A stretch of 64,000 bases of DNA from Amphiscolops sp. MND2022 (lineage: Eukaryota): NCBI GenBank assembly GCA_964187785.1, contig OZ076409.1, forward strand, positions 44,332,001-44,396,000, in the 5' to 3' direction. The notes beneath the pieces are model-generated. The model was not told where the DNA came from. It ran no database searches and saw only the letters and a program-made list of their open reading frames with translations. Shown here piece after piece: positions 1 to 57,169 of this stretch (within the stretch, counting starts at the first letter, position 1; each line of letters starts with the position of its first letter). A program made the translations under genes and the position numbers.

Positions 1-2018
1 GAAAGCAGCAATTCGACACAACCCTGCCACATCAGATACAACCATCACAATTCAGTCCGTTTCTACAAACTTGATCAAACAACCTGAGATACAAGTCCGA
101 CTACGGAAGACGAACCAGATAATTATTGAGCCATCCAAATATGAAGTATTACAGCAACTGAGGGCAAAACTGCTTCATGAGGATTACTCTGAAAATGTAC
201 TGCAACAAGATGCCCGATATAGACATTATGCAAACAACTTGGAACTCATTGTAGTCAAGGAAGACATCCTGACGAGGCAATACTTCGATGAAACAGGGAA
301 TGTGAAATACCATCAGATCCTTTTCCCGCGACACCTACTACAGGGACTGTTTCAGTCCCTTCATGGGACAGAACATAAGCACTCTGCATATCAAAGATGT
401 TACACGAGATCGGAAAGAGGTATTATTATTCTAGCATGGCGAAGCATGTTAAAAGGTGGGTATAAGAGTGCGAACAATGCGCAAAGGGCAAACGAGTCCC
501 CAATGCAACGATCATGCCTGAACTACTCAATTTGCCGGAAAGGGACCTTTGACCCGAAGACGCTATGCAGATGGACTTATTGCCGAATCTTCCCCCAAGT
601 GGATAATTTGAAAACGTTCTAACTGCAATTGATATCTTCTCCCGATATCTGTTCGCCTATCCTCTTACGGACGCCTCAGCGATCAATGTAGCAGAAGTGC
701 TCATTGACATAATGACTAAACATGCGTATTTACTAACAACGCTCTTTGTTGATAAGGGAGCTGTATTCACTTCCACGATTATTGCGGAGATTACGCTCAA
801 ATGTGCAACGACAAAGCACCCGCAAACAGTCGGGAAATCAGAGCGGACACATACTTCACTCAAGACGAAACTCAAAACAGCATGTGACGAATACCGCCGA
901 CAATGGCAAAAATATTTGCCATTGACAGTCCTAAATCATAATACAAGTTACCATGCCAGCATCGGTTGTGAACCAACAAGAGTATTTCATGGAAGAATTC
1001 CATACAATGTCGTGGATCACAATCTTGGAAACAATCCAAACGAACAGATCACTCCCTTAACCGATATTGCGGAAGAAATCCAAACTCACTCGGACAAAAT
1101 CTTGATCGATAAAACGAAACAAAATATCATGCAATCATACATCAAATACAAGGAGTACTATGATCGCAAAGCGAAAGCTGCTCCACTCAGGGGAAACGAA
1201 CATTGCTTCGTATTGCAGCCGAAAGCGGATCATCAAGGATCAAAATTTCCTTTCAAAGATTAACGTTGGGTTGGACTATTTATAGTCCAAAAGGTACTAC
1301 CTAATGAGAATTACATTGTACGCCGGCTCAATACAAATATAACCTAAAATTTGCATCGAATTCGCATTGAAAAGTTTGTTCCCAATCAACCGCTTGAGGA
1401 CCATTTCCGAAAGAAGCGCTTGCAGCCAGACGAAGAAATTATCAAACTGCAAGACGACTTGTACACAGTAACGTGGGAAACAAACTTCGGTGAACAGCTA
1501 GCTACACGAGGCAATCAGCCTATTTCGACTAGCTTGCCGAAAGGCGAACAGCCAGTTACGACAAACCCTGATTTAAGTGACACACACGAGAATGAGCTCG
1601 ATTACATAATATTGAACGACAGTCCGAATGCCGTCCACGACGCCGCACACAAGCGGAATGAAGGATTAAATGATGACGTCAGAAAAAAACATGACGATAT
1701 TGAAGCTGAAGTGAATGAAAACTCTGATTGGCAGAGTCCGGCCGTTTAACCCAAAAACAAAAAAAAATTTTTGCCGGATTCGTCCGAAAAACTGGAAAAT
1801 GTTGATTCGTCAGAAAAACTGGAGAAATTGGAAAAATGTTTGGAAAAAAGTTCTGCTAACGAAACCGATGCAAAAATTTCTCCAAAAAAGGGGATGATAT
1901 TATCGTTCCCGGAATATCCCAAGACGATGATAGAAATGAATGTCTGAGCCCTAGAGGGGGGAAATAAAATCACAGGCATAATCCCAATCCAAACTACTCA
2001 GAAGACTTTAAATACTAG
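1..2018 (+). pseudogene. pol: Ty3/Gypsy element A: degenerate 3' pol (integrase zinc-binding region, DDE core, C-terminal tail); runs off the window start
   Basis: Frameshifted ORFs 71-622, 697-1263 and 1351-1749 give integrase-type sequence (LHG..H, VDKGAVFTS, HPQTVGKSER, YHASIGCEP..VFHGR). The tail reads SPRGGK*N.R.NPNPNYSEDFKY* with stop at 2016-2018, matching the KYNLRTNPKPNANPDFR* tail of element B. Confidence 0.92.
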
Positions 2019-2163: not shown

Positions 2164-5100
2164 CTAGAAATGACAACAAGTGTGTGTATAAATACAAAAC
2201 AACACAGATCTGAATAATGGGAATGAACAAAAGAAATCAACAAGTTTAAGGTTTGAAAGTACATAAATACATATGTACAAAAACCCGTTAGATATACTGG
2301 CAGCAGATCCTCTTGCGACTGATGAGGCTCGTGACCGCGAAGAACTCTTTTCCATACGTCCCCGCTTGCTGTCATTAGGCGGTGGGATGGCAGGTACGTC
2401 TTCCACCGTGGACACATCCAAAATACTGGGACCTCCAACTCTCTCGGTTGAACTAGAAACGGCAGTGCGATATGTTGAGACATGGGATTTGTAGATTTTA
2501 CCCCAGTTGAAGACATCGACGTACGTCCATGGGTCGTACAAAGGAGAGAATGCCGACTGACCAAAAGAAGCAGATAACCAGCAGAAACTATTCAAATTGG
2601 AATCATTGATACAGCAGGCATGGGAATCTGGCACTCCTGGCAGTTAGCTATGAGATGGCAAAATGACGTCCGTGGTCCGACTCTGGCAACCCGATGTACT
2701 GATGGTTCCCATTGTGACTGCAGGAAAATCGGCACTGTTTGATGTAACACCGAGACAGCACAGTTTAAACAAAAGTAACTGATAGCTGTGAGCCTGCATA
2801 TATTCAAGCGTCTTCAAAAAGTCTATCAGATTCTTGGAATGCTGCGTGACGTCAAGATTTGAAGCATAATTAGCGCGGAGATGGTCAAGAAGTCCTACAT
2901 GTTCATCTCGACAGGTAGACTCATTGGCGGCTGTCACACACGATCGGAGCAGGAAGGTGCAGTAAAGCGTATCAAAAGGACGGAGGGCTACCTCCGTTGG
3001 TCTTCTGAGCATCACGAACGGGTCAAAAGCTGCCAGTCCTTTAACAATGTTTGAACTCAAACTAGCTCGGCGGAGGACTTCACCGATGAGGAATTGCAGG
3101 TACGCTAGCTCATCCCGGACAAAATCGTTCTTTAGAGTCAGGACCGTTTTCTGGATGATGGACTTGTCTGCTTTCTTGCCAGAATGAATGCCCTCTGACT
3201 TCTGGCTACATGCCTTGGACACTTTGTTTGTCATCTGTAGCCGCGTTAAAAACTCTTCCACGGGTATGAAAGTCCCCTCGCTAGTCTATTAGCTCAACAG
3301 GAGAAACCATGAGTTCTCGAGAGGAATTGTGGCAGAGTTGTAGCAACGGAAACACAGTGTGTAAATGTAACGTGAAACTTCCCCACAGGGGTAAAAGGAG
3401 GAATCTCGCTGTTGCTGCAAGTTAACTGGAGTTGTCTGAAACAAATGGAAATGGCCTATTCTGATCTCGAAAGAGAGGCAGAGAACAAACTAGGGATTAC
3501 TAACAGTCACTGATCAAGTGGTAGAAGAACTCCAGTTTGATAAGGAAAAACTCATCGCAGATGGATGACCATTCGAAACTCTGCACCTGAAACAGAACAC
3601 GAAGGGCATAATCACTGATATTAGAAACTCACCTACCCCCACCATTTTTTTTACTATTCATACGGCTTACTCTAGTTCTAAGACAAGTTAGGCAACTCAC
3701 CCTAGTTCTGACGCCCTGACATTATTGCTGTGGCACATGCAGAGTCAAGTATGATGTCATTGACTTCCATTCGTCTTTGAGTTCCTGACAGAACATGGGA
3801 AGAGACTGGAGATTCAGATTGCAGCTGGTAATAGCCTAAAAGGAAACCCAAATTTGGAAAGCCATAACGGTCAGATTTCTGGTTCCTACCCGAAGTCCCC
3901 TTTTGCCAAAAGAAATTAACGGATACTTTCTCGAACTAACTCAGGGCTCCTCTGTACCCAGTCCTCTTGGAGTGAACTGCCCAAAGAAATCACTAGACTT
4001 TTAAGCACCGAGAAGAAGTCAATGTGTCCAAACACACTGTAGCTCGTCTTATGCATCAAGAGGCCTAAGTCTAACTGGTTAAATCGAATTAGCGTTGTAC
4101 GGCCCGAGTAGAGGTGGGCATTTCATCAATGGTGCGGATCAGGTCTTTTGGGCAGCCTGAACAAGCAACTATATCCGCCTTTGTTGAGACCACCGAAAGT
4201 AAGCGGGCAAGGGACCCCAGCTCGCCGGTTAGTTCTGAGGACGGCAACCCATTTCGGCACACGGTGACGCGACAGAGCTCTTGACCTCTCCAGAATCTCA
4301 GTGACATAAATCGACTGGTTCCTCGTCCTCAAACTCGCATTGCGTTCCTCTGCAGTGCTGGGAGGCCATGCTCGAAGTTTGATCGAGCAGTCAAGGAAAT
4401 TGTAAGAAGGATCCTTACAGTCATTCGCTCTTCAACACAATCAAAATTGCAAAGGGCAGCCTGGTGATCCGTGAAGGAACTAATATTTGCCCATAAATTC
4501 CGGAGGACTGACAGGTCTCCTTGAGTCTGAAGAAATTCGCCGACCTCGGAGCCTGAGTCTTGGCTCGTGATTCAGAGGTAATGAGGGGAGTGGTTCGGTC
4601 CCGGATGAAGTCGTCGTAAAACGGGAAGCGTTCTCCCATGTCAACTAGCTCTGATAGGATGAACTTTGGTAACTCTCTAGCCGGCTCGATTTTGGTTAAC
4701 ACTTTCCCGTTGCGGCCTCTAACCCGGTGCTGCACTTTACTACTCACTGGGTCTACACTTCTGGGGTGTTGGTACCTCCAGCGCTGGTATCGCCTCAGGT
4801 GCTTCTCCGCCGTTGGTGGCGAAGGATCTCGAGAGGGCCTTTGGTCTTAATCGAGAAATTCTTCCTACACACATGGCACTGGACCATGAGTGGATTGTTT
4901 ATTCGGGTTAGCAGGACCAGAAATGAAGGACCTCGTCCAACCAATCTTAGCGAAGAACTCTTCGCGCATGGGGACTCCTCGCTGGGCTGTCGTTTGGGCT
5001 TCTGAGGCTTCTTGGCTTGGGTTTTGCGCTTGGAGTTCCCACTTAGGGTCTGTTCTCTAACTTTTGACAGTGTCACATCCTGGCTACTCTGATCTGTTTC

Positions 5101-6238
5101 CTGGCTTCTCCATTCTTCAACCCTGTTAATGTGAGATATGTTGAGGGGCATTCCTTTCTAGTCGTCTTGTACGATGCCGTGATCAGAGCCAGCTCTCCGG
5201 CACTGTCGCTCTTCCCGCAAATTGAGCAATCTCCTGATTCTCCTTGGTGGGTTAACTCCTGATTGTTCGTCTCCGCGTACACGATTGTCTCAGTCTCTGC
5301 ATCACTGGAAATCGCTTCTAGCTTGCATGAAAGGGGTTGAGGTCCTGGTTCTGCTCCGGAAGTGTTCTGTGCGAGATGGTGCTGTGGTTGGCCTTCCTCT
5401 AACAGCATCAAAGACCATTCGTTCCATGGTAGCAGGAGACATCCTGCGAGTTTCCTCTGTTAAAACTCGTAACAGGTGATATATTTGTGGCTCGATAAAG
5501 GCCACACACAGTGGGGTGACCACGGGGAAGATTAAATGCTTTCGTCTCCTGGAAGAAAGTCTTGAGGACGGCTCGAGCTCTTCCAGACAGATCTGGCAGC
5601 TGGTCTTCTACTCCTCTGGAAGTAGGTGCTATGTGTCTCGTTGAGACAAGGCGTTGGAGCCGGTTTCGTGTTCACCTTCAGCTCCCGATTCAGTTGCACT
5701 AGGGATGATCCCGTACAACGAAAGGCTTCCCGCGTTGCTCGCCTCCTCAACTGTTTCTTCTCCCTCACTCAAATCAGCTAGGAACCAGACTTTAGGTTCG
5801 TTGTTGGGCAGCGCAGGCTTTTCGTTGATGGACGACTCGTTGTCATCTTCAGACTGAGGGATAATTGTGACAATGTCCCCATGATCCTCACCTAAAGTCG
5901 GCAATAGCTCGGGCAGTTGCGAATCGGAGGCGGTGGCGATCCTCAAAGCTGACTCCAAAGCGGTCAGACTTGTACTGGTCGCTCTCTCCTCATCCATAGG
6001 GGTGCTTGCGCCTCTGGGTACTGTGGACAGATGGTCTTGTTGGGATTCAGTATTTCCAGTGGACATCAATTCTTCTCCTGTCTCGGCAGTAGTGTGGCCC
6101 TCTTTGCTTAGACGTCGCTCAGCCTCCATACGCAGTACCTTAGCCTCAGCGTAAGCATTGATGTCAGTCTCACTAGCAACACTCTGTGGGGAGTAGCGAA
6201 CTCCAACAGCAACTTGTGGCTCAGGGCATTGTTTCCAT
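2164..6238 (-). pseudogene. Antisense accessory gene of Gypsy element A: acidic low-complexity N-terminus, C2H2/BED-like finger and hAT-transposase-like C-terminal region; spliced, frameshifted
   Basis: Collinear minus-strand fragments 5629-6129, 5073-5411, 4795-5151 (CHVCRKNFSIKTKGPLEILRH), 4421-4747, 4089-4307, 2644-3261 (KGLAAFDP...DFL...FKLCCL) and 2164-2634. GT-AG introns at 3700-3587 and 3504-3436. Homologous by eye to 48138-50947. Start position approximate. Confidence 0.75.
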
Positions 6239-7016
6239 CTGTGGTAGGTTGAGGTCTGGAAGAGAGATCTGACAGTGTCTCAGTTTCAGGTGGTTGATTC
6301 TCTGAACGAAAAGTGATGAAGTTTTGCGGTGAGCTTCCTTGAAAGAAATCCCATTTCCCGTATTAGAAATCGTCCGGAAGTACTTTGAAAATTAAGATGA
6401 AACGTGTTATCAAGTGTTCAGTGATGGAAACAGGAAGCACCTTATGAACGAAATTCAATCCTGATCAAGTTAGGTTAGTTCAAAATAAAAATTCAAAACC
6501 AACCTGTGTTCGAAGACATTCTGCTTTGATGAGTTTGCCGTCTGCGGTTTAGTCCTTATTCGATTGATTATGTTAGGGATACTGGCCGGCGTTGGCTGAA
6601 GAAGGGAGGAGATTCCAATAACTTCAGGGAAGATGAAGTCAGTACCAAAGGTGAAGGCGGATGTGGACGAATGAAGTAATTAGGAAAACAAAAGATAAAA
6701 GATTCAAACAGTAATGGAATTGGAAGTTGTAAAGATAGAAAAGTTGGAGTTGGTGGCTGAAGAGATTTACCACACTGATATTTGTTGTCTATTTACATAT
6801 TTAAAACTGTAGATGGAGTCTGCCAGCGAAGTGTACAACGGTTTCTTCATTTTATACAGCTTGTTTAATTAGAAGCCGATTATGGCTTTTCACTTAGCTC
6901 TGTTTTACCGCTTTGTTCCGTTTTCCCTATCATTCTTAGTACGAATTTCGTCATTTTTGTATTATTCAAAAGTGTTGTTTTTTCGCCATTTTTCTGTTCA
7001 TTATTCAACTTTGTCA

Positions 7017-8166
7017 ATGAGCAATTCTGATTGGGTGAAGCCACTTGGAAAGAAGTTGTTTGACGAATGCCGTTAAATGAACTCGAGCTCGCAGTTAATT
7101 ACTCACTTAACTTGAATTATTCGTTATTGATAACTCAAAGGCACTTGACATCTGCTCTGACGATGTGGGTGATGGTGGACAAGCACCGCGAATTCAAAGG
7201 GAAGCCGACACTCGGAAAGATTCATTCAGAAAAGTTTACGACGGATTAGGATTATCAACCTTAGTTTCTACCGCCAAACTGAAAATACAGGAAAAGTCCT
7301 CACTCGATCTGAAACGGAAATCTAATAAAATTCATTCTGATCTTAAATTCGCTGAAAACAAGTTGCTAGTTAAACTCTTAAAAATTTGCGAAGAAACTGA
7401 TAATGCAAAAACTCAATCTCCCAAGACGATTGTTCGACATGGACGAGGAAAGCTCTAGTCTTCTAACGATTCAGTAGTCTGTTTCTCCAGCGACGAAGAG
7501 AGCCTATCCGAAGGTTGGGAATCTGACTACTCAACTGGGACAGAAGAAATGGTAGCTAGGGTTGAGCAAGAAATTACTTCCAGCCCCTTGCTAATCGGAG
7601 GAAGAATCATGACGATGGGCAGTTTAGAAGAGGATCGGTTGCAGGCCCGAGATCAACAATGCTGAAACAGTCGATCACACCCAAATTTGACAGAGCCTAC
7701 TTTGATGAGAAATTTTGCTATGCCCCCCAAAAGGAATTCAAAAAGGAGAATTTAGCTGTGCAAGACAATTCTCCCAGTCTTGGAGTAACCCTTGTCCCCT
7801 CCTCCACATGAAAGGGGGCCTTCGCGGGCCACTCCACTAATGCAGACGGCCGAATCAGGCTTCCCAGCGTCTTACCATACCCAAAACACAGCGCCGTACG
7901 AAAATGTTATTGAAGTACGTTACGCTGGGTGTATTTTTTGCGGTCGATCTGTGGAGTCGATTAAGAAGTAGAAAGTGTCCGTGTATCTAAAGGAATCTAC
8001 ACCGAGAGATGAACCAGAATATGAACAAAACTAAGGAAAGAAGCATATGAAAATGGTTTGAATGCTGGCGCTTTTCTGTTCCTCGCACCCGCAGTGTTGC
8101 AGGCTGCCGCCTGTGACGGAACCATGATCACAACCATGGAATTCGTACAGATAAACCATTCTCAGG
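7017..8166 (+). pseudogene. Degenerate additional sense-strand ORF of unknown function, probably internal to Gypsy element A
   Basis: ATG at 7017 (MSNSDWVKPLGKKLFDEC), continuing after a frameshift as LNELELAVNYSLNLNYSLLITQRHL. Later acidic stretch (SSDEESLSEGWESDYS) and a CIFCGRS motif near 7930. Multiple stops and frameshifts. Confidence 0.4.
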
Positions 8167-8952
8167 TATGATTTTTATGTTTTACATATTAGTCTGATAA
8201 ATGTACGATTTGGCAAATCAAATCAAATTGATAGAAATTGTCAAAAGACGTGGCAAATGCAGATTAACATTGATGCGAGTTGAATACAACTGTAAGGCAG
8301 CAAAGGAACCGTGCTCAAGTGACGCAAAGTGCTATTCCGCAAACGTCACCTGAGCAGGTAGTCGCAGCCAATCACAATTCACCACTTGTTGCTTCATTGA
8401 TACTTTTGTTCATTGAATGCCGAATAAGGCCAATTGACACAACGCCTCTACTCCTAATTAGCAATGTAGTCAAATGAGGTTTCCGCCGCTGAAAGACCTA
8501 GTTATGAAGGTAATGACACTTGCAGTTACCCAGTAATTAGGTGCTTGTATTCTACGCTCTAAATAATTGCTTCGATGCACAAATTACCAGCCAATACGTG
8601 TGACTTGGTATTATTTGCCGATTAAGGACATTTACCTTTAAATTGTCAGTGCTTATTTGACATGAGATGAATAGCCCGTGCAGGAAGTTTTAATATATTT
8701 GTTGTTACATGTAATTTGCAGTTCAGTTAGAGTAGTATAGCCTGTTTGGTCACGCGCGCCGACGCGTGCCCGCAATGTTTTGTTGAAGCTTTGATGTAAC
8801 TAGTCCAATAACCAATGAATTAATGGCATTCATTTGATGCCACAAATGCCTGTTGCTAGTCACTTGATACATTTTGATGCTTCTCTGATAAAGATAATCA
8901 CGTGACATGTTAGGGTCACGACCATCATGTGATTTTATTTCTAATTGGAAAA

Positions 8953-9682
8953 TGTAAGGAATGTGAGGATCACCTTCTCATGGGTATATATACCAACGCC
9001 TTTCCTGGGAGAGACACTTATTATTTTTACACGCTCTGATGAAGGTACTCTAAAAACGGTTCCATTGTTGATTTTCCGAATTCAAGTATTTATACTTGGT
9101 TTTCTTCGATGCCTACTACTAGAAAATCGAAAAAGGCAAGGAAGTCAAGAAGACTAGAACTACTCTCAGATATAGAAAACTTAGATATAATGTTAGGCGA
9201 AAGACACTCTGAGAGGGATGAGATTGTAAATAGTAACTCAGCCGGAAAGCCGGAAAGTACCACTAGTGACATGTTTGAAAATAACGAAGATAACTTGTAC
9301 TTGAATCATGCAGAAGTGAGACCCGGTAAAAGCGCCGACCCCGGGCAAAATTCAACAAGTGGTAACTCGAATGCTGAGATCAATAGGTTGTCGAGTGAAC
9401 TTATTTCAAGGTTGTCTAGGGAAATGGATGAGGTGATGAATAGTGTTAATACTCAGATCCAGAGGGCCATTAGTGATGCTATAAGCAATCAGATCTTGCC
9501 CCAATTGCAAAATGCCCTAAGGGCCAGATCGGAACATGTGACACAAAATAGATGGAATGTTTCGGTTGAGAGACCGGAAACTAATTCCGAAGATTATCGC
9601 AGTGAGAAAACTAAAAACTACTCTAGAAGTCATCCGACCCGTGATTGTCTACAGGACAATCACACAAACCGAGCTTACGACA
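8953..9682 (+). mobile_element. Putative 3' (or solo) LTR carrying the gag N-terminal ORF (9109-9693); 5' boundary uncertain
   Basis: ORF MPTTRKSKK... resembles the element B gag start MSTTRSQKRR. It ends ...CTTACGACA (9682), at the position equivalent to element B's CGTAACA|TGG junction, and the ORF stops 3 codons later. TATATA at ~8985; candidate TG start TGTAAGG at 8953. Confidence 0.55.
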
Positions 9683-9772
9683 ATATGACTTAATGGAAAA
9701 AATATTTCACCAGATTCTCCATTTCAATTTCGTTGATTTTCTAATCATGAAATTTTTTTTGGCATTGTACCA

Positions 9773-10577
9773 TTTTTTAGTCGGCGCTTCATGAAGTGAA
9801 ACGCGACTATTATAGTGACTTTTTTTTCTATCCACACGAACTGACCAAAAGAGTTCTACAAAAGTTCTACAAAATATTATTGCATCAAAATGCACTATTT
9901 GGTCTAGCGAACTGAACCAAAAAAGTTTTTCCTGTTTTTCCGCGTAACATACCATACCGGGCGAGACCAAAGACTCCCACCTTAAATTTTTTTCGGCACT
10001 GCGAGACATTTTTTTCGGAATTTTTTTCTTCGGAATTTTTTTTCCTCAAAGGGTCCCCCCTGCATTTTTTTGATGTTTTGCGACAGAATGGATGTTGAAA
10101 AATCCCAAAGGGTCACCCCTTTCATCTTTTTTTTTCGGCATTGTGAGATTTTGTCCCGAAAATGAAAATTTTTGTTTTCTTCATTTTTTTCATGTTTTGC
10201 GACAGAATGGATGTTGAAAAATCTCAAAGGGCCCCCCTTTCAGTTTTTTTTTCGGCATTGTGAGATTTTGTCCCGAAAATGAAAATTTTTGTTTTCTTCA
10301 ATTTTTTCATGTTTTGCGACAGAATGGATGTTGAAAAATCTCAAAGGGCCCCCCTTTCAGTTTTTCGGCATTGTGAGACGTTAGCGCGCCAGGGGCTCGC
10401 GGTAGCGAGCCCCGGCGCGCCACTCGGTCCATTTTTTTAGTATGTAATTTTTTCAAAAAAAAGTTTCGAAAAATTTTCGATTTTCGACTACTGTAAACGA
10501 ATACTTGACACTTGGAAGTCTTTTTGCTATTTTTGAGCCTTGGATATGGCGCCGACTTGGGCCGGTCCCGGCTTGTT
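9773..10577 (+). mobile_element. Non-autonomous Helentron-like element (HINE/DINE-1 type), family H1
   Basis: 5' T-run plus AGTCGGCGC subterminal inverted repeat; 3' GCGCCGACT plus GCCGG-TC-CCGGC hairpin and terminal TTGTT. Three ~118-bp internal repeat units; no TSD seen. Confidence 0.8.
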
Positions 10578-11758
10578 GAAAAATATTTCTACCTATTAGT
10601 ACACCAGGGCAGGACTTCGCATCGAGTGTTGAACCTGTGTATCTTTCAAATAGCCATATAAATTTACAGTTTTCTGATATGACGTCTATTTCGATTAAAA
10701 TTTATCCAATTCACGTTATATTCGGAATTCATTGGATTTTTGATTGTCAATATTTTAGGTCTTGGTACGAAGAATACGGGTTTCGACTGTGACAAATGAC
10801 AAATTTTTGTATGATTTCAATTTGAATATTATTACCATTCTTATCATAAAATGTATACCAATAGAATTATTTATTTTAAGTAATTATTACCATTGTTCCA
10901 AAGTTATACTGGATCTTGCTAGAACTAGCACGTTTTTTAAAGACAAATTCGAATATTTTTTGAAGAAAGTTCCCTCAGAATAACCCAAAATGGGCAAAAA
11001 TGACAGAATTTTCAAGTTATTAACTTTTTTATGCTGTTTCATATATCATTTTCGACTAACTTCCATGCATAAAACGGTTTTAAAAACTCAGTAACAACTA
11101 ATTCTGGTATCCACTGGGCGTTTTTGAAAATATAATTGCACTTTTTTGTAGGAATTGGTCTCAGAAGCACCCAAAATCTAAGAAACAACAAAAAAGCATG
11201 TCTTTTGACACATTAATCTCAATTTTCGTTCGAACCACGCAAAATTTTGTACAGTAGAACATCCATCGACCTGAGCGTTGAAACAATAGGGTTTTCAAAA
11301 CGCAATTTGGGAAAAAAGTGGGACGAAGATCCTCGAACTTGACAAGAAAGTTGCCAATGTTTCAAATTTTCTCAGTTTTCGATTACATGGTCCTAATTTC
11401 AGACCCCTTTCGGAATTTTACTTCTGTTAGAAAGACCATATAATCAGGATTAAAACTTGTAGCTATCGCTATTGTTTCGAAAAAATATCGGACAAGTTTG
11501 TTAGCACAAGTTTCAACAATTTTTTGATAATTAAAAATTTTTCTAAGTTTGTCAAAGATTCAAAATTCAAAAAACTCGATGCAAAATCTCTAGGTATGGA
11601 AAACGCCTTCCAAAGGAAAATCTTTCTTCGATTTCCCACGTATGAAGAAAACCTGAAAATGACCCAAACGTCAATGATGTTTTGACGTTTTCTTGCAACT
11701 ATTTTGTAATGTTTTCGAGCTTTTTGGTGGGTTAGAATAGTGTGGGTTAGGTTTTCAA

Positions 11759-12442
11759 TTTTTAGTCGGCGCTTCATGAAGTGAAACGCGACTATTATAG
11801 TGACTTTTCTTTTTTTTTTTTTCAATCCACACGAACTGACCAAAATAGTTCTTAAAAGTTCTACAAAATATTATTGGTCCAAAATGCACTATTTGGTCTA
11901 GCGAACTGAACCAAAAAGGTTTTTCCTGTTTTTCCGCGTAACAAACCATACCGGGCGAGACCAAAGACTCCCCCCTTTCATTTTTTTCGGCACTGCGAGA
12001 CTTTTTTTCCGAAAAAAAATTTTTTCCCCAAAGGGTCCCCCTGCATTTTTTTGATGTTTTGCGACAGAATGGATGTTGAAAAATCCCAAAGGGTCCCCCC
12101 TTTCAGTTTTTTTCGGCATTGTGAGATTTTTTCCCGAAAATGAAAATTTTTGTTTTCTTCAATTTTTTCATGTTTTGCGACAGAATGGATGTTGAAAAAC
12201 CTCAAAGGGTCCTCCCTTTCAGTTTTTCGGCATTGTGAGACTTTAGCGCGCCAGGGGCTCGCGCTAGCGAGCCCCGGCGCGCCACTCGGTCCATTTTTTT
12301 TGAGTATGTAATTTTTTCGAAAAATTTTTTTTCAAAAAATTTCGATTTTCGAGTACTGTAAAAGAGTACTTGACACTTGGAAGTCGTTTTGCTATTTTTG
12401 AGCCTTGGATATGGCGCCGACTTGGGCCGGTCCCGGCTTGTT
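11759..12442 (+). mobile_element. HINE family H1 copy, near-identical to 9773-10577 with two internal units
   Basis: Same termini (tttttagtcggcgc ... gcgccgacttgggccggtcccggcttgtt) and same body. Confidence 0.8.
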
Positions 12443-12519
12443 AACACTTCTAACGACGTTATGTTCAATGTGCCCAAGTTGGCGGCTCAATTTTCTAAAC
12501 CTTGCAAAATATAAATTTT

Positions 12520-18300: not shown

Positions 18301-18447
18301 CTTCGCTGCAATTGGGTTACATGCCAAAAATGCCAGTTGATTACACAATTTGCTTTTGCACAGTTCACAGAAAATCAGACAAATACGTGCTTAAAATTAT
18401 GCTAGTGAAATCCACTGACTAATCAGTGTCGTGCACTTCTATTTTTC

Positions 18448-19312
18448 AACACAGAGGCGAAGCCGTGCTTCGCAAACACTTGCGAAGAAAGTTGCGAACT
18501 TTTGAAGAAACCCAAATAAGCAATATCATACGGAGAGCCAAGGGTAAAAGGACATTGTTAAAATTTCATCAATTTTACGCCGAAAAATCGCGAAGGGATA
18601 CCCATAAACCTTGAAAACAATTCTTCTCCAACTGGAAACAACAGAAAACCCCATCTTTCTCAACCGCAAACCTTTAAAAAATAGTAAATTGAGGGAAAAA
18701 TTTCGAAATTTTTCGAAAATTTTTTTGATGAAGGTCTCCGGCAAGTCGCATAGTGCCGAAAACCTTGAGCAGTGCTTTATGCTCGCAAAACGTTTCGTTT
18801 CTAGTAAAAATTGAGGGGGCTTTGATGAAAACAAATTAGAAAAAAAGTCGCATAGAAAAAACGGCGGTCTTTAAAAAAACAAAAATAGGATATAGCGTGC
18901 TGGGCCTGAGAAAACCTAATTTTAAGACAAAAATTATTCGATTTGAAAAATCTCACAATGCCGAAAACTATAAAAGGGGGATACTTTGAGATTTTTTTTA
19001 ACATTCGTTCTGTTGCAAAATACCAAAAAAAATGAAGAGAGGAATCTTTGGTGCAAAAAAAATTGCGAAAAAAGTCACAAAGTCGAAATAACATGCACAA
19101 AAAATTTTGGTCAAGGGCGAGACTCGAACACACGTCCTTCTGCTTGGCAGACCGGAAAAAATCCTAATTAACCTCTATGCCAAAGGCCAGAAGTTGCGAC
19201 TTGCACGGCCACAAATTCAGACTATGCGACTTGCGGTCTGAAATGAGAGTTGTCGCGCGGAAAAAAAGCACCCGCACTTTCCCATAACACTTGCTTATCG
19301 CAAGTGTAAAAA
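18448..19312 (-). mobile_element. HINE-like element, family H2
   Basis: AACAC-GCGAAGCCGTGCTTCGC hairpin at one end; subterminal inverted repeats ACACTTGCGA / TCGCAAGTGT followed by an A-run at the other. A related head occurs at 23521. Confidence 0.7.
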
Positions 19313-19958
19313 GATTTTTTAGAGGAAAAAAGTTTTTTATTCATAAAGGATATTTTTAATTATTGCACACTTTCAACACAAATCAAAACAGTATTTCAGA
19401 CTAAAATTGCAATTCGCATTAAGATCTAAGCTTAATCTTATTCATGGACAATCGATTTTTCCGATTTTCCGTACAGTACTGAGGCCTTGGAAATGCCCTG
19501 TTTTCTTATAATTGAATATTTAAGTCGAAAATTCTGAATAATAGTTATTAAAAGTTCCCAGAAATAGATCGAGTTGACCCCGGTCTTTATCGCCGAGGTT
19601 CGATTCACATTGAGAGTACAATTTCTTTTTATTTAAACTATTACTATTCATTTAAATGATTACTCCTTCAAATGAATCGCTTTTAAAGGGTGGAGATTTT
19701 ATATGATCATTTAAATAATTCTTTTGTATTATCCTTTAATTGTACAACACTGTAACTAATCAACACAAAAGTGTGTCAGCATCTGTTTATCTCCGTAGCG
19801 TTGCTTCATCGGAAGCCTGCCGGCCTCACATGGTTGGTTTCCAGTATCATTTCAGCAAAAGTACTTTGATTTATTTTCTATTTCAGTGAGAAGTTTCAAG
19901 TGAAATTTCATTCAGTGAAAATAAAAATATATAATCTACTTGCAAGGGAGAGATATAA

Positions 19959-22900
19959 TTAATTAAGATCAGGAAATTGGTTTGTAAATTTCAGCTTCAG
20001 GAAACGCCAATAATTCTTTCGAACGAGATCATCGGCAGTTTCTAGTCGTTCCAACATGGGCAACAGTTCGTCGTTAAACAAGACTTTGCGGGTTTCTAAC
20101 GACTGGTTTTCATCAGCTAACTGTTCTTCGTAGCAATCCATCATGAACAAACACAAGTATGGTGACAAGGGGCTTTTTGGAGGTCGCACGCGCAGCATAT
20201 TGCGCACAAAGGTCAAGATGTCACAGTTGTGAGGGTCCAGCAATTGGTAGCCAGAGATGTTGGGGAGGTTTTGGGTGATGCCTCTCAGGTAGTTCCAAGG
20301 ACTTTCATTGTAGATGTCCAGCTCTATTTTACTCAGAGTGTATATTATTTCACGTTGCAGCACCTCTTCTGTGAAATCTGTAGTTTGGCTGATGACGAAG
20401 TATCTTTGATTCCAAGCAGAATTATTTCGTAAGTCATCTGTAAAAACCATCAATTTCTAACGTGAAAACATTCAAAAGCTGATCAGAAAGCTAGTCATTT
20501 GATTACAACATTAGACAGAGTGAGTTTATGTGAAACTTTTTTGAGCAGTTTACAGCTATTTCTAATTTTTACGGGAAAACAATTTGAAACATATGATAAA
20601 AATGTCCAGGATAATGTATCAGGTCGATTAGCAAAATGTATCGCGGGACTGTTGGCCGAGTAGCTCAATGAAAAGCTAATTGCGCCTATGGCGGGTGCAA
20701 TAAACAGTCGAATGAAACAAACTCAGATAGGTTCAGGGCTGTCAAGTTGTTAGTTAAAAGTAATTTTTAGTCGCCGTTTTCGAAGAAAATCCCGACTCTT
20801 ACAGTGGCTAGTTTTTTTTCGTCAGTTCAACGCGTAACGTCCACTTTTTTGTTCATTTGTTCAACATCTTACTTAGCCGAGGTAAACCCGGATATTACTT
20901 CGAATATATTGTTTCAAAGTTCCCATGGTTCAAAGTTTGGATATAACGTTTTCAAAGTTCGGATATAACGTTTTCAAAGTTCCGACATAACTTTTTTTTC
21001 GGCATTGAGACTCAGTTTTTTGGGCATTGACTTTTTTTTCAATTTTTTTTTCACCAAAAGTGCCCCTCCAATTTTTTTGACGATTATCGACAGAATGGAT
21101 GAAAAATCTAAAAGTGTCCCCTCTGGTGCGCCAATTCGGTTCAACTTTTGGGTTTTTTGGGTGCCGTAGAAGAGAATACTTTGACACTTTTAAGTCCTTT
21201 TGCTGTTTTTGAGCCTTAGATATGGCGCCGACTTGGGCCGTTCCCGGCTTGTTAACTATGACAACAGTTGACTCGCAAAAAACTTATTTGTTCAAAAAGT
21301 TAACAAGACGAGAACGCCTCAAGTCGGCGCTATATCTAAGGCTCAAAAAGCGCAAAACATTTTTTTTTGGAAAAAATCTTGAAATTTTCGAAAAAAATTT
21401 CTTTCGGAAAATGTCGGACAGTGCCGAAAAATGTAAAAGGGGGACCCTTTTTGATTTATAAACACGCATTCTGTAGCAAAATAACAAAAAACTCAAAGGG
21501 GGGACCCTTTGGGGACATTAAAAAAAATTCGAAAAAAAATCTCACAGCGCCGAAAAAAAATCGAAAGGGGGGGGGGGGGGGTTACGAAACTTTAGTCCCG
21601 TCCGGGCTTGTATGTAACGTTTAAAAAGTAAATGAATGCGCTCCCCGTTTGCCTTTAGCGGTCCAGTAGTTTAGTACTTATTTAGTGGTTGAACGTTAAT
21701 TTTAACGTTCGTCGCTTCGAGTCTGTCTTAAATAAAAAAAAAAAAGAAAAAAAACGAGTGACTGTAATAGTCGGGCTTTTTTCTTAAGAAAAACGCCGAC
21801 TAAAAATGAACACCAGCAAACATGTGCAGCCACTTTAAGTTAACAGTACAAGAAGGCCAACTTTCCGGCTGTCTCGATCAGATTTTGACAACTGGACATT
21901 TTTAAGAGACAGAAAACTCTTTGTTTAGAAAATCGTTTTCAGTTCTGATTGATTTCAAAATATTTTAGGGATTGTTTGACACAGGAGACTTTCCAAATCT
22001 GAAAGACAAGTCGAAGTTGAATATTTGAACTATTTTTAAACGTTTGACATTTTTTTAAAACAGGTTAATAACAGTAAATGATGCAAAAGTTAACAAACAA
22101 GTGTTTAACATGACAACCTCAGATGATTTCAAAATTAGATTTTGAAAAAAGCTGTTCCTTGTTGCTCGCCGCTGTTACAGACACAAGCGGAGTTCACAAA
22201 GTAATTTGGTAGATGCAAAACTTTTTAACCATTTATAAGATATTCCACATATTGCAATTCCTTCTCCCAAAGTGAGAATGTCTTTAGCAGCCATTGTCTG
22301 TATTGCCACGCGTGATAGTTTTTGGCATCTTCTTCCAACATTGATTCGACAAACTTAAGTTCTCCAGCAGCGTCGTTCTTCACCTCAATCACCTAAAACA
22401 TAAGTGTCCAAAACCTCGGAAAACTCGCGTGTTTTACAGGAAAGCAAAAACATGAAGAGAACTCAAAGCTACAACAAACGACAAAGACGAACTTTAAAAA
22501 GCTAATTAATTCGGTTGCCTTGTATGTAAATGTATTTCAAAGAAGCGACAATATTAGCAAGCCGGAAACGGCCCAAGTCGGTGCACCGTTCAAACGAAAA
22601 GTTCTTAAATATGCAAAAGGACACTATTCTTAAAATTTCATCAATTTTACAGTGCCAAAAAATACCCGAAGGGATACGCATAAGACTCAAAAACAACTTT
22701 TTCCTCAACTGGAGACAACAAAATCATTTTGCTCAATCGAAACATCTCAAACGAAAAATTGAAGGGAAAATTCGAAATTTTTTCGATTTTTTTCCAGAAA
22801 AGTCTCCAGTAAGTTGCATAGTGCCCTAAGGCCACTAAAACCCTAAGGAGTCCTCTATACTCGCATAACTTTTGGCTTCTGGAAAAATCGAGGGGTCCTT

Positions 22901-25900
22901 CGATAAAAACAAAGTAGAAAAAAGTCACAGTGCCGAAACAATCCGGGAACGGCATAAGTTGGCGCCATATCTAAGGCTCAAACATAGCAAAAAGACTTCA
23001 AAGTGTCTAGTATTCTTTTACAGTACCCAAAAGTTGGACCGAATTGGCGCGCCGGGGGCCCGCTGGCACAGGCCCTTGGCACGCTAAAAGGGGGAACCTA
23101 TCGGATTTTTTAACATCCATTGTTGCAAAACTTCAAAAAACGGAAGGGGGACACTTTCCGATTTTTTAACATCCATTGTTGTAAAACATCAAAACATTGA
23201 AGGGGGACCCTTTGGGGAAAAAGTTTCGGAAAAGTCTCTCAATGCCGGAAAAAACTGAAAGGGGGACACTTTAGTCTCGCCCGGTATTGTGTTACGCGGA
23301 AAAAAGGAAAAACCTTTTTGGTTCATTTCCTTTTTACCAAATGGTTCAATTTGACACCATAAAATTTCGTATAACTTTGTAGAATTATTTTAGCCAGTTC
23401 GTGTGGATTGAAACTTCATGAAGCACAGAGTAAAAACGACTGTCTTGAAAAAAAAACAAAAGTCGGATATACTGTGCTGGTCCACTGAGAAAACCTAACT
23501 TTAAGACAAAAAATATTTTGAACACAGGCGAAGCTGTGCTTCGCAATCATCTGCGAAGAAAGTTGCGAATTTTTGAAGAGAAAACCAAATAAGCAATATC
23601 AGACGGAAAACCAAGGGTTAGGAAGTCGGACAATTTTTTTAACTGATTGATCAATTTAAAACAAGAATGGAACGTCTAAAGTCGGCGCTATACTTAAGGC
23701 TCAAAAAGCGCAGTTTTTAAAATATGCTCCGGATTATTGTTTAATTTTACAATGCCAAAAAATACCCGAAGGGAGAGGCACAAGACTTGAAAACCACTTT
23801 TTCCCCAACTGGAAACAACAAAAAATCTATTTCTTTTGGAAAAATTGGGATTTTTTCTCTCGGAAAGTCTCATAGTACCGAAAAACCCAAAAGGGGATCT
23901 ATTAAACTCGCAAAACTTTTTCCAGCCAAAAACTTTGAAAAAGTGAAGGGGTGCCATTTTAGCGAAAAAACTATGCCGAAAAGAGTCAGTACGTCTCTTG
24001 CACATATATTGAGAAAACTCTCAGTCTCCCAGGACTAAAAAATCAGAGGTTACCGTTAAAACTGGGAAAACGGTTCTGCTCAACCGAAAGCTTCTCAAAC
24101 CAGAGCCGCATATGCGGTAAAGGAGTCAGCTTAAGTCTTTTTCCTTCTGACTCGCTCGAATCAATCCCAGTCATACGAATTTATTGAAATTGCACACATA
24201 GGACCTTAATATGGCGTAGAATGACTGTAGTTTCGTTCGAATCGTATGGACAGTTGTTTAAAAAAATCAAAAAAGTCGAAAAATGGCTTTTTTGGCCATT
24301 TTTGGGCTAATTTTGGCTATGTTTCTCAGTCATACGATTTTGATGCCTTTGCGTACGCAGGGCCCCTTTGGGTGTAGAATGGCTGTGCAAAATTTTATGG
24401 AAATCGTATGAACGCTTTTTGAGAAATTCCAAATTTTCATTGAAAGGTCGGGAGAAAAAAACGACACGATTGCATAAGTAGTCAAAAATTTTTTCCGACT
24501 CCCTAAAAACTAAATGAAAAAAAATCGTTTTGGAAATTTTTCCAAAAAATGTCTCAGGTAAGTCGCATAGTACCGAAAACCCTGCGGAGTCCTGTAAGCT
24601 CGCGGAGTAAAAATCGAGGGGGGCTTCGATGAAAACAAATTAGACAATAGCCGCATAGTACCAAAAAACGCATGTCTCAAAAAAACCAAAATTCTTATAT
24701 AGCGCAATCCCCGCATCCTCCTTAGTGAAACGCAACCTAATTTTACGACAAAAAATATTATTTTGCAAAGCTCACAACTCCAAAAAATGTAAAAAGCAGG
24801 ACCATTTGGGCATTTTTAACATCAAAAATGCCCCCATTCGGGCAAAAAATCAAAAAAATGCAAGAGGTACCCTTTGGAGACATTGAAAAATTTTCGAAAA
24901 AAAGTATCACAGTCGAAAAATCAAAAGGGGGACTCTTTGATCTGGTCCGGTTTTGCAAATGCACAAAAAAGTCTGTACCAAAAAATGGTACATACAGGGT
25001 GAACTCTGTGGTCTGACGAAAAAAACTAGCGACTGTAATAGTCGGGCACTTTTTGTCAAGAAGCGCTGACTAAAAACTGAGTGGAATAGATAAAGAATAT
25101 TTCCAAACATACCGAAGTTCGCGGAGAGGCAATTAGCGTTTCAAAATATATCAACAAATTTACAGCAAAATTTACATTATTTCATTCAACCTGCGCATCT
25201 GTTCAAAATTTAAAATGAATTTTCGTATCTTCAAAAAAGTTACTTCATATTTTGAGTGACAAAATTCCACAAAAAAAAAACGAAACAAGCAAGGAATTAG
25301 GCCCATAAAATAAGCAAATCGCAAGGAGTTCTGTCTATTTACTCGCCCCATCATCGATCACTCCATCATGTTTTGGCTCAATTGAACTAACCTTTTGTCG
25401 GTGAAACCAGACTTGGTAATTTTTGGGATGAGCTTCAATGATTTCGTCAAGGAATGACAACTCGCCATTCAAATCTTTCTGAAGGTCCCGCAGAAGTTTT
25501 CGCCTATAATACCATACGGTGTAGTTGGCCGGATTCAGCTTGGCTGCTTTCTCGGTTAGATCGAAGGCTCTATCTGAGCGCTCATCAGACTGCAAGACAG
25601 CTCTCAAGTAATCATACGTTTCTCGGAACTCATCTGGAATCATGAAAATTTTCTTTCCATAATAATACTAGCAAAAGTACAAAACATCTTCTTTAAAGGT
25701 AAGTCCAATTGTTTGTGATTGATCTTAGATAGCATGGTTAGGTAGAAGGAAGCCAGCGTCATCAAAGAAATTGAGTGTAATGAGACCGAAGTCAAGCATT
25801 TAAAAGACGAATTAGTGAAACTAGTCTAAGGTAGGTCGATGGAAAGTTTCGCCATTTGGATGTTGAAAAAAATGACAAAAACTGTGCTATAGCTCCTTCA

Positions 25901-26307
25901 GAAATTTTCTTACCGGTTGAAAGAAAATCAGATTGCGTAAGGGAGTTCAAATAAGTACCGTGAACTTACAATAAAAAACTTCGCCGACAAAAAATAATTA
26001 ATTATCAACAACTTCCTTGCAGTCGCTTCTTCAAAAACGCTTCTCCGGATTGTAAAAACTGACCTGAATAATTAATTTTGGCAATAGAATGTACTCCATC
26101 GTTCTGTGGCACAGGAACAACGTCCGCCCAACGAGGATCCTCTTTCAGAGACGGAATGTACTTCCCCAAAAAAGCGTCATCGAACAATTGAATGCGGGTA
26201 GACGTGCTGCTGCTGTTAGATTGATTAGATCTAGTGGCTGACTCAGGGGGCTCTTTCAGGTCTCCAGTGGCCTTGATCTGGTTCTCATCACCACTGGCTG
26301 GCTCCAT
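19959..26307 (-). CDS. FNTA: Protein farnesyltransferase/geranylgeranyltransferase type-1 alpha subunit; exons 26307-26064, 25633-25392, 22392-22230, 20437-19959 (375 aa)
   Basis: PFTA repeats [43 protein letters not shown] and YNESPWNY; N-terminal W.DV.PVPQ.DG. All three introns are GT-AG with compatible phases (1, 0, 1); total 1128 nt, in frame. Confidence 0.95.
20764..21253 (+). mobile_element. HINE H1-related copy in FNTA intron 3
   Basis: tttttagtcg start; gcgccgacttgggccgttcccggcttgtt end; internal 21-bp gatataacgttttcaaagttc repeats. Confidence 0.75.
21302..21806 (-). mobile_element. HINE H1-related copy, opposite orientation, FNTA intron 3
   Basis: aacaag...aagtcggcgc start; cgccgactaaaaa end. 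Confidence 0.75.
22556..25076 (-). mobile_element. Cluster of tandem/nested HINE-like copies filling FNTA intron 2
   Basis: Heads at 22556, 23521 and 23660; tails at ~23436, ~24509 (ccgactccctaaaaa, a different family) and 25076. Confidence 0.65.
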
Positions 26308-26381
26308 GGGCCAATCTTGAAAATAGAACATTCATTTAATTGGATGGTTATTACAAAGTTGATTATTAAATATCAATTAAC

Positions 26382-27080
26382 AACAAGACGGGAACGTTTC
26401 AAGTCGGCGCTATACCTAAGGTTCAAAAAGCGCAAAGTTTTTGAATTATGCTCAGGACGTTATGAAAAACTCACAAAAAGTTCCGAAACACAGAAAAGGT
26501 GCCTTTCGTGCTCGGAAAACGCTTCAGAAGTTCGCATATTGCGAGCGGGAACAAATGGGAGCGCTTGTTTTCGAACCTCAGCCTCCTCCTTGGTAAACGC
26601 AATATAGTTCGGATATAACGTCAAAAATTCGGATATAGCGCTTTATTTCGGATAGTGTTGAAAAAAATGATATATCGACAAAACCTAATATCAGACGAAA
26701 AATAAGAATTTTGAACCGTCTCATTGTGTCAAAAATATAAAAGGGGGGACCCTATAGGATTTTTTGAGCATCCATTCTGTTGCAAAATATCAAAAAAGTG
26801 AAGAGAGGACCTTTGGGAGACATTGAAAAATTTTGGCAAAAAAGTCTCACAGTACCGAAATAAAATCAAAAGGGGGACCCTTTTAGTCTCGTCCGGTTTT
26901 TTATGTTACGTTAAAAAAGTAAAAAATGACAAGGAGACCCTAAGCAAAAACTTAGATGCGTTTCCCAGGTATTTCTTTAGCTGAACAAACAGCAAAAATT
27001 TCATCACATTCGAGTCTGTCTCAAAGAGAAAAACGAGTGACTAATAGTCGGGCTTTTTTCCTAAAAATGCCGACTAAAAA
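26382..27080 (-). mobile_element. HINE H1-related copy 75 bp upstream of the FNTA ATG
   Basis: aacaagacgggaacgtttcaagtcggcgc ... atagtcggg...gccgactaaaaa. Confidence 0.75.
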
Positions 27081-28214
27081 CATCCAATAAGAAGGAAAAT
27101 TTTGCGTATTGTATCCGTATTTTACGCAAAAAGAAATATTCACAAAAAAGAACATTTAACGTAAGAAGGAAAAGTGTATTCAAATAGAGGATCCAAACTA
27201 TGATCAAACATTTTGATCAAATGAAATTCAAGGTTTTATCCATGTTCAATGTGCATCCTACATTAATAGAAAATCTTCCAAAAACCAAAACTGGAATTTT
27301 AATTAGGCTAACCGAAAAAGCTGGAGAATGTTTTAAACAATGGACGGTAAGCGTGATGTATTTTAAATTCCCAGCAGTTTATATTCCAACGAAAAAGATT
27401 GACGAGTAATAATTATTTGAAGGAAGTTTTCAAACGAAGCATGCGGTGACCGCAATCCAGGCTTTCGTGAACATCTGTTACATTGCGAAAATTCGGTTCA
27501 TCAAATTGCCCTTCATCCCTTAGATATTATAGACTCCAAAGAAATACACTGCTCAAATTCTCTTCACAACAATTGTAGATGAAATAATGTTTGTTATTGT
27601 AGATGAATAATGTAGATGAAATAATGAAACAAAGTTTTGCCAACATTTTTGTGAATCGAACATCTTATTGAGGACTTAACATGTAATTGTTACGTAACTT
27701 TGATTGACTATTCATAATTTTATTCAATATTTTCAAAAAAACTGAGCCGTCATTCGAAATAAGTTTTTTGCTAGTAGCAGCGAAGAAAAATTGAAATCAA
27801 TTCTTCAGGCCAAAGAACTCTTGAAGCGTTTTTGATCCGCCTTTCTTTAAGAAGCTTAAGGATATCGTTCGCATCGAAAAAATTTCAACATATTTGACAG
27901 ACTGTGCTTTTTGGAGCTAGAGTGAGGAGCCGACTTGTGACGTTCCAGTCATGTTCTTTCACCCCAATTTATATCGGAACCTCTCTAAAAATCTATTTAA
28001 AAAATCTGCATACTCTACAGTACTGCTATCAAAAGTAAAAGCAAATATAAAAATCGAATAATTCAAAAACGGTAGAAACTCAGAAATTTGTTTTAAATAT
28101 AATTTGTCTTTCGAAAAAAACTGCTATAGTTTCAAAAGACCATTTCAGCCTAGTTAATTGAAAATTAGAAACGTGAATTAGACATCGGTGTAAAATCGGT
28201 AATCAAGAGAAAGA

Positions 28215-29372: not shown

Positions 29373-29778
29373 CCGTAGTGTTTTCCACTTCAAGAATTCT
29401 GACCTTGTATTTCAGTTTCATCAACTGCTCATAATAGCCGCAGGAACCTTCCAGATCTTTTAACCAACAAAACTGGTTTCACTGAACCGCGTTCCCCGGA
29501 GATATTCTCTTTCTTACCTAATCAGTAGTTTTGTTTATTTTCAAGAAGGACTCGCCTGGTAACATCTGAAGAATTGGCTCCAATTCAGCATCGTAACAAA
29601 ATTTGTTCAAAAGCATGACAAATTTTTATCCTCTAATTTTATATCCTCTGTGGGTGTAGCCACTTTGTGGGCTATGCAGGTGTTATCGTATATTCTCCTA
29701 TACAAGAAGCAATGCCAGGGTGACAACACTACATCAAATGGTTTTCCATGACATTTTACCTTTCTTGACTATGTAAAA

Positions 29779-30871: not shown

Positions 30872-31320
30872 ATTAAGATCACCTACACTACAGCGGATCG
30901 GCCCATGTTCGACGTGTAACTCTTGCGAAACGAATTGTTGTTGGCAGCTTGAGAAATTTAAATATCACGCTCATACTCACTGCCGGGCAAAATATCTGAA
31001 TTTTTCAGTAGGCACTCGTAATCACAAAAATTGAACTAAAAAAAGTTCAATAATTCAGATTTCAATATTCCTGTTATCGCAGAAAGAAAAAAATGCTAAA
31101 TAAAAAGCCGCAAGCGGTTTTTTTGCAAAATTTCGAACCACCAATATGGTACGCCAAAGATCAGCGTAACATTTTTGGGGGTTAACGTTTTGTGCATGCA
31201 CTAAAAGGTCACCCTTTGCTTCAACTTCAGATTTAGCAAGGTCCAGAAGTTTCCAAAATCGCCCTCTGCGCGGGAAATTAGTATTTGTTTTAGTCTACAA
31301 TAACCATTAACTACAACAAT

Positions 31321-57156: not shown

Positions 57157-57169
57157 ACTCCTGTCACCA
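57157..57169 (-). promoter_or_regulatory. Putative primer binding site (tRNA-Leu-like) immediately after the LTR end
   Basis: Minus strand reads ...CGTAACA|TGGTGACAGGAGT, one mismatch from TGGTGTCAGGAGT, the complement of a metazoan tRNA-Leu(CAG) 3' end as I recall it. Confidence 0.6.

Follow-up and report, generated by a model that had tools for sequence, protein, structure and literature searches.

An antisense gene of probable hAT transposase origin is a fixed accessory gene of a Gypsy retrotransposon clade in Amphiscolops

Introduction

Among retrotransposons with long terminal repeats (LTRs), antisense open reading frames (ORFs) located between pol and the 3' LTR have been described in the plant elements Grande, RIRE2, Retand and PvRetro13, and in the fungal element Boty (PMC7264820). 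That source calls the origin of these ORFs unknown and an origin from nested transposons unsupported, with no likeness to other transposable elements; for the Retand domain TRP28 (PF04195), PMC11963269 gives a distribution limited to flowering plants and an unknown role and origin. The antisense gene of Grande has its own promoter and encodes a nuclear protein that is suspected to be a DNA-binding regulator (PMC7264820, PMC11963269). Here we analyze a 64,000-nucleotide stretch (hereafter, the window) of the genome of Amphiscolops sp. MND2022 (positions 44332001-44396000 of contig OZ076409.1, in an assembly of 1.07 Gb and 1,929 contigs), which contains two decayed Gypsy elements, A and B, each carrying an antisense gene that most likely derives from a hAT transposase.

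As in Tat/Retand, Grande and RIRE2, this gene is located between pol and the 3' LTR in the reversed orientation and is present in nearly all copies (PMC7264820, PMC11963269); unlike the Retand type, it appears to come from a whole hAT transposase and contains introns, and Pfam scans of its proteins yielded no match to PF04195. The plant mobile domain (MAIN/MAIL1), which is common to Gypsy and Mutator-like elements (PMC5418596, PMC13547354), and VANC resemble it as accessory chromatin factors borne by transposable elements; however, the plant mobile domain is not a transposase and its captures went from host genes to Mutator-like elements, whereas VANC is found on DNA transposons. In the planarian Burro/GYPSM1 elements, an animal Gypsy group has likewise captured accessory domains and has a dUTPase-like stretch between protease and reverse transcriptase, but its additional domains are of the apoptosis, ubiquitin and env-like kinds, mostly within one polyprotein, and no transposase is named in the accessible part of the source (PMC6431247).

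In open full texts, we found no report of a captured hAT, or of another accessory gene derived from a transposase, in an LTR element (subscription papers and Repbase are mostly outside this coverage, so that a brief prior description is possible); judging from the sequence relationships presented below, this would be a Gypsy accessory gene traced to a whole DNA transposase for which no earlier paper was found. Host-domesticated hAT proteins, such as the ZBED family, DREF, DAYSLEEPER and FAM200/GTF2IRD2, are DNA-binding chromatin or transcription factors. Unlike in those cases, the domesticator here is another mobile element, and copies of the gene are themselves mobile and very numerous.

Results

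The antisense gene is linked to pol throughout a large Gypsy clade

The original prediction, made from the letters of the window, described two diverged Gypsy elements facing in opposite directions, each with pol followed by a convergent antisense gene. Six-frame reading, Pfam and tblastn bear this out: the window carries two Gypsy pol stretches (2-2018 on the plus strand and ~51200-55700 on the minus strand), behind each of which lies a convergent gene on the opposite strand, and both elements are decayed copies of one large Gypsy clade. A search of the genome with a single exon gave 6,100 first-look candidates for lineage A and 4,953 for lineage B (150 scored for each; these are not copy numbers). 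A convergent integrase end was found within 1.5 kb of the gene in all 30 best lineage A matches; a convergent integrase also accompanied 20 of 20 lineage B matches (rows without stops, picked down the list) and all the top-ranked loci from three additional subfamilies (8/8), that is, 58 of the 58 gene matches. In the reverse direction, the gene was present next to each of 20 integrase matches (about every sixth of 130 rows), so that linkage was observed in 78 of 78 sampled places. All these samples were drawn from the best-scoring rows, and old or free-standing copies are therefore under-sampled.

Intact elements, with an estimated length of ~16 kb, share the layout LTR, gag, pol, antisense gene, spacer, a small sense ORF (ORF3) and LTR. 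Four elements were examined at both ends, and in all four the gene and pol lie between paired TG..CA LTRs of ~1.7-2.5 kb, the compared parts of which are 97.7-99.9% alike, with 5-bp target duplications (ACAGA, TCTAA, GCTAT and GACAG) and a primer site that immediately follows the 5' LTR. Pfam places the domains of the intact pol L047 in the order protease (residues 227-315), reverse transcriptase (626-791), RNase H (860-981) and integrase (1179-1350). In pol order, paired TG..CA LTRs, primer site and a target duplication within 4-6 bp, the clade is Ty3/Gypsy, and the antisense gene is its fixed accessory gene.

The original prediction regarded a gene flanked by its own terminal inverted repeats and 8-bp duplications, or occurring mostly without pol, as the mark of independent DNA transposons nested in Gypsy. 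Nested insertions are, as a matter of general knowledge, common in such genomes, and gene A of the window lies between the arms of a 20-nt inverted pair, as could be expected of an independent hAT or a non-autonomous element that was neutrally amplified as a passenger. This pair was rejected as a terminal repeat: it is of low complexity, has no 8-bp duplication and is present in none of six intact regions (0/6). No conserved repeat brackets the gene, the 5-bp duplications are at the LTR ends, and pol stands beside every sampled gene. The position and orientation are the same in five subfamilies, and given also the purifying selection, conserved splice sites and congruent descent described below, we consider a neutral nested transposon to be effectively excluded.

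Exon structure, selection and descent of the gene

In lineage A, the gene consists of five exons separated by introns of ~70-110 nt, the phases of which yield one continuous frame. At the eight splice sites, GT/AG is kept in 29, 28, 28, 28, 28, 29, 29 and 27 of 30 lineage A copies (one of these copies, L016, is probably misaligned), and between subfamilies, introns are 41-67% identical compared with 65-85% for exons 2-5. The introns of lineage B correspond to positions 1, 3 and 4 of lineage A, whereas in lineage C a single frame of ~873 codons extends from finger to tail. The frame is also uninterrupted in P0158, a protein from another source that is 47-53% identical to the best copies found here. 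These intron differences reflect gain or loss inside a retroelement gene. Intron 4 is cleanly missing in some B-like proteins (P0004 and P0005, compared to L045 and P0010), and the lineage C gene (L135) is without core introns. The N-terminal 470 amino acids of the product comprise 16% Asp plus Glu and 22% Ser plus Thr, and basic tails are present.

Ratios of nonsynonymous to synonymous substitution rates (dN/dS), a comparison between families put forward with the original prediction, were calculated as medians over only those pairs with dS of 0.1-1.5. These medians are 0.061 for lineage A exon 2 (2 of 15 pairs), 0.076 for lineage A exon 5 (10 of 21 pairs) and 0.103 for lineage B exon 2 (15 of 171 pairs, with 146 saturated), compared to 0.030 for the lineage B integrase (82 of 153 pairs). 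With dN/dS of 0.06-0.10, the antisense gene is under purifying selection.

The genes of lineages A and B are 17-19% identical in an almost gap-free alignment. For the comparison of gene and pol descent, which had also been suggested, integrase was used: the deep agreement is clear, with the grouping (A,A2),(B,B2),C recovered from gene and integrase identities alike, and within lineage B, the agreement is only partial (Mantel rho 0.45, equaled in 0 of 2,000 permutations), with two discordant copies and poor resolution of the integrase tree. Identity between lineages spans 16-45% for the gene as opposed to 50-76% for integrase, and saturation of silent sites is frequent in the gene in cases where integrase shows none, a pattern suggesting that the cassette may have been exchanged between subfamilies.

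When 1.84 billion representatives were searched with a profile of the last exon, 1,164 clusters (at 50% identity) were identified at E 0.001. The 10 clusters inspected were all unnamed ENA proteins, a tree of 58 of the 1,164 includes deep A-like and B-like radiations, and no longer annotated forms of the gene were found. Of two metagenome scans, the first returned no relative and the second two loci.

The gene product most likely descends from a hAT transposase

The protein resembles hAT transposases (Hermes, PDB 8edg, and the DGPNVN / SHGxAxVExGFS type of this genome) in a conserved Trp, a collinear fold alignment and an apparent order of finger, helical linker, RNase H-like core and helical insertion domain; it differs from them in lacking the catalytic triad and the CxxH, in being without terminal inverted repeats and an 8-bp duplication, in its long acidic N-terminus and in being moved by reverse transcription. 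The likeness of the finger and the C-terminal helical block to hAT transposases was part of the original prediction, which pointed to a remnant at 29779-30871 (minus strand; limits from that prediction), a free, decayed hAT transposase of a donor-like type (SHGxAxVExGF) outside both elements. Profile, language-model and fold evidence supports a hAT origin, and the closest group is that of this remnant. Against a profile of donor-type hATs built from relatives of the remnant (L100, L103, L105, L107 and L108, with the intended fragment L106 missing from the N-terminal profile), hhalign matched the last exon with a probability of 90% (E 1.6e-6, 161 columns, score 52 compared to at most 15 in 12 column shuffles) and the BED-type N-terminal finger, in which CxxC..H..H is kept, with a probability of 75% (E 2.5e-5, score 40 compared to 14 in shuffles). 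In a language-model search of the ESM Atlas, 23 of 30 matches fell in PF05699 clusters, and FAM200/GTF2IRD2 clusters were also seen; for exon 2, the matches were to Mutator/ISL3-type DDE clusters. In a fold search, Hermes ranked first of 48,161 for the model of the last exon and sixth for the model of exon 2, and the two predicted models align in order to Hermes residues 175-345 and 368-571.

Other results were weaker or negative. For the succession of an RNase H-like core and a helical insertion domain, the RNase H part reaches only E 0.025 against donor-type hATs, and the fold alignments have low Z scores (4.5 and 5.8). Pfam detected no PF05699 or other hAT match in sets of 27, 15 and 50 proteins, Foldseek against the PDB gave nothing at E 0.001, with integrases at the top of the weak exon 2 rows, and PDB sequence searches with three gene alignments gave nothing under E 0.2. 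There was also no Pfam zf-BED match in the gene product; N-terminal pieces of donor-type hATs are likewise devoid of hAT-related Pfam matches. No longer relatives of the window remnant were found. The Ac-like common hATs of the genome were rejected as a source: 11 frames and a profile of seven produced no match to the gene profiles.

The same role could have been assumed by a gene of another source, either a host gene already domesticated from a hAT or a member of another DDE superfamily that has an insertion domain (Mutator, P or Kolobok). This seems improbable given that the finger and the helical part both match one hAT group that still persists as free decayed copies in the genome, that the lineage C core is without introns, and that none of the 58 gene matches was outside Gypsy. 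On balance, descent from a hAT transposase is strongly indicated, with a probability that we put at about 0.88, although no single test is decisive.

Catalytic residues are lost and the finger is retained

The original prediction noted that the SHG.A.VER.FS segment, which carries the catalytic Glu, is replaced in both window genes, and this holds across the family: an ERxFS-like motif is present in none of 70 homologous last exons, and the Glu position (with the register uncertain by one) is occupied by Y, L or F followed by P, with P in 56 of the 70. Among 16 exon 2 rows, the position of the first Asp is A, E, I, L, M, T or V, with D or E as the next residue, that of the second Asp is E, H, Q or S, and the CxxH motif is absent in all 16. 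According to these alignments, the protein has lost the D, D and E of the active site together with CxxH, so that the protein is probably catalytically inactive: it should not cut, but should still bind DNA and oligomerize. Across 10 rows, the finger ligands C, C, H and H vary little or not at all, and every exon 2 row keeps the Trp of the hAT RW motif.

Such conservation of the whole scaffold beyond the finger, including the invariant Trp at the RW position, would be compatible with a dead transposase that binds the ends of the cDNA or the integrase complex and assists nuclear import or tethering to chosen chromatin, in a role akin to that of a chromodomain or a host tether. The basic tails fit this possibility, as does intact pol, in which Pfam found no chromodomain. 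However, near-identical integrases are paired with very different versions of the gene, a poor fit for a tight integrase partner, and the four target sites share no obvious sequence (too few to test). We consider a function as an integration helper unlikely.

Anatomy of the two window elements

The decayed 3' part of element A pol at 2-2018 (plus strand; integrase zinc finger, core, GPY/F and tail, by Pfam rve and tblastn) is 69-74% identical to an intact pol of 1738 amino acids in tblastn; the remainder of gag-pol, with the 5' LTR, precedes the start of the window (L031). The antisense gene A follows on the minus strand. Exon 5 (2284-3435), which has stops inside, contains the hAT-like helical insertion domain, the segment in place of the catalytic-Glu motif and a basic tail; the model of the homologous exon is the one that aligns to Hermes 368-571. 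Then come intron 4 (3436-3504, GT..AG), exon 4 (3505-3586, 27 codons), intron 3 (3587-3700), exon 3 (3701-3835, 45 codons), intron 2 (3836-3930) and the remnant of exon 2 (3931-4322), an RNase H-like core without the catalytic Asp residues, from which the first part has been deleted together with the intron 1 acceptor. Exon 1 (4419-6350), with several breaks, encodes a long acidic Ser/Thr-rich region, the CxxC..H..H finger (~4878-4790) and a helical linker at the position of the hAT dimerization domain. Gene A had been placed at 2164-6238; an antisense gene is indeed present, but it starts near 6350 and intact copies end near 2284, the frame down to 2164 being a read-through in this decayed copy.

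An AT-rich spacer (6351-7401) separates the antisense gene from ORF3 (7402-8135, plus strand, decayed), the two starting head to head, as they also do in L032, L034, L036 and L045; this spacer is a putative two-way promoter. The 3' LTR (8095-9682, plus strand, TG..CA) and the 5' LTR in L031 are only 87% alike and have no target duplication.

In element B, the gene is on the plus strand and comprises a finger exon (48138-48644), an RNase H-like exon equivalent to exons 2 and 3 of A (48773-49393), a small exon equivalent to A exon 4 (49486-49565) and a broken last exon equivalent to A exon 5 (49668-50947). The partner gene had been located correctly at 48138-50947, but it is cut at an assembly gap of N (47938-48137), on the far side of which neither the 5' part of the gene nor ORF3 nor the 3' LTR is present. 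The decayed gag-pol (51200-57556, minus strand) has gag at 57556-56236 and protease, reverse transcriptase, RNase H and integrase down to ~51200, with a 250-bp duplication (51965-52464) and an inversion near 53958-54511. The 5' LTR (~57170-59465, minus strand) is directly followed by the primer site TGGTGACAGGAG at 57169. The element A 3' LTR, the element B 5' LTR and the sense ORF at ~7402-8135 had no place in the original description. Both window copies are dead, and gene A bears stops, frameshifts, the deleted junction of intron 1 and exon 2, and a non-canonical GA donor.

All motif pairs by which the two window genes had been aligned by eye are present and occupy shared alignment columns: the finger, FD(W/C)..EER / W.R.ES, FW..RVTV..ELGSLARLL..CSG / TW..RVCV..ELASLSRVV..CQG, DSSFY / DYSFH, KGLAAFDP / QGLYSFCP and FKLCCL. 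The decayed genes A and B had no direct mutual match at E 0.01; the last exon of an intact B copy matches window positions 3405-2686 at E 1e-6 (19% identity over 228 columns), and this alignment places the homology of the two genes beyond chance.

Element ends, spacer and ORF3

A polypurine tract before the 3' LTR was not found in any of five elements (window 8055-8094, L032, L034, L036 and L045), where the last 15 nt contain 5-8 purines; yet young insertions exist, so plus-strand priming must be atypical. No errantivirus-like sense env ORF was recognized behind pol, the large extra gene being antisense and the small, acidic ORF3 having no Pfam match. The L047 pol has a long N-terminal extension ahead of the protease, and its residues 353-435, between protease and reverse transcriptase, weakly match dUTPase (PF00692, E 0.18). 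The gag frame begins inside the LTR, ~130-190 codons before the LTR end, and continues through the primer site (window 8095-9682, L033, L035, L037 and L046), so that every 3' LTR bears a copy of the gag start; the element A 3' LTR contains the first ~190 gag codons (9043-9690). About 170 bp after this LTR (window 9683-9778 and 10572-10644) recur behind the 5' LTR, in the primer-site region (L031:2870-3036), which suggests conversion or rearrangement between the ends. In the spacer of a B element (L045:2900-3230), there is a ~115-bp tandem repeat with recurring GACGTCA motifs resembling the cAMP response element. Enrichment of 6-mers did not exceed that in shuffles in seven of eight regions, and the sole excess, in the B spacer, comes from the tandem repeat.

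ORF3 encodes ~260 amino acids in intact copies (L032:1391-2164 and L045:1975-2745), and its end extends into the start of the 3' LTR. It is acidic and conserved (147 scored matches among 8,028 candidates; dS is saturated at dN of 0.2-0.3), the lineage A version bears a CxxC, and no significant similarity was detected between ORF3 of A and B. An acidic stretch of the form V/L-I-x-I-S-S in ORF3 resembles a SUMO-interacting motif.

Other features of the window

An NSD-type histone methyltransferase (PHD, PWWP, AWS, SET and C5HCH) is encoded in one unbroken frame of 1,774 codons at 34630-39954 (minus strand), an architecture of animal type. A dispersed repeat family with GGGGACCCTTT-type subrepeats, found in both orientations at 9770-12450 and 18400-31900, probably consists of non-autonomous DNA transposons. 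The remnant of a non-LTR-type reverse transcriptase (45300-47820, plus strand) lies directly ahead of the assembly gap. Long frames at 40608-41726, 43224-44600 and 61250-62806 (minus strand), one AAA ATPase-like and two without a convincing Pfam match, are probably host exons.

Discussion

The most straightforward scenario would be that the ancestor of the clade took in a whole hAT transposase gene, reversed, between pol and the 3' LTR, and that the gene has been a fixed accessory since, its protein having retained the zinc finger and helical linker as well as the RNase H-like scaffold and its insertion domain. Because the gene is on the opposite strand, its introns would not be spliced from the genomic RNA and would survive reverse transcription; for the same reason, transcription would have to come from a promoter of its own in the spacer shared with ORF3. 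The BED domain of Hermes binds short repeats specifically, and its dimerization and insertion domains multimerize (PMC10368747); by analogy, DNA binding and oligomerization are predicted for the protein described here. Its acidic, disordered N-terminus, finger and basic tail would amount to a build like that of a transcription factor, and the basic tails suggest nuclear location.

An antisense gene with its own promoter could also restrain the element that carries it, the protein and the antisense RNA dampening transposition and limiting harm to the host, as discussed for plant antisense ORFs and the antisense genes of human T-cell leukemia virus (PMC7264820, PMC11963269); domesticated transposases, namely CENP-B homologues, can repress retrotransposons (PMC5418596). 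The clade is, however, very abundant, with thousands of first-look candidates, and recently active, with LTR pairs up to 99.9% alike, and the rapid divergence between subfamilies is more in line with host conflict, so that self-restraint appears a rather poor explanation. By analogy with Hermes and with transcription factors, we tentatively favor a nuclear, sequence-specific regulator of its own element family, an activator or an anti-silencing factor that would keep the element transcribable, with fast divergence between subfamilies. With still less assurance, the dead hAT protein could be the oligomeric, sequence-specific factor by which each subfamily recognizes, shields or activates its own copies, the rapidly changing antisense gene and ORF3 together forming an exchangeable counter-silencing cassette.

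The family is large and invisible to Pfam, and hence has probably been mis-annotated or missed. Because the origin of the gene can be traced to a specific hAT group, its likely activities, namely, short-repeat binding and oligomerization without cutting, are directly testable. If the proposed origin is correct, a transposase has been domesticated not by a host but by a mobile element, bridging the divide between class I and class II elements, and the gene offers a natural case of introns being kept in an LTR element by antisense position. Should the cassette act against silencing, it would represent a counterpart of VANC in an animal retrotransposon, made from the enzyme of another transposon, and may have helped this clade to become a major part of a 1-Gb genome.

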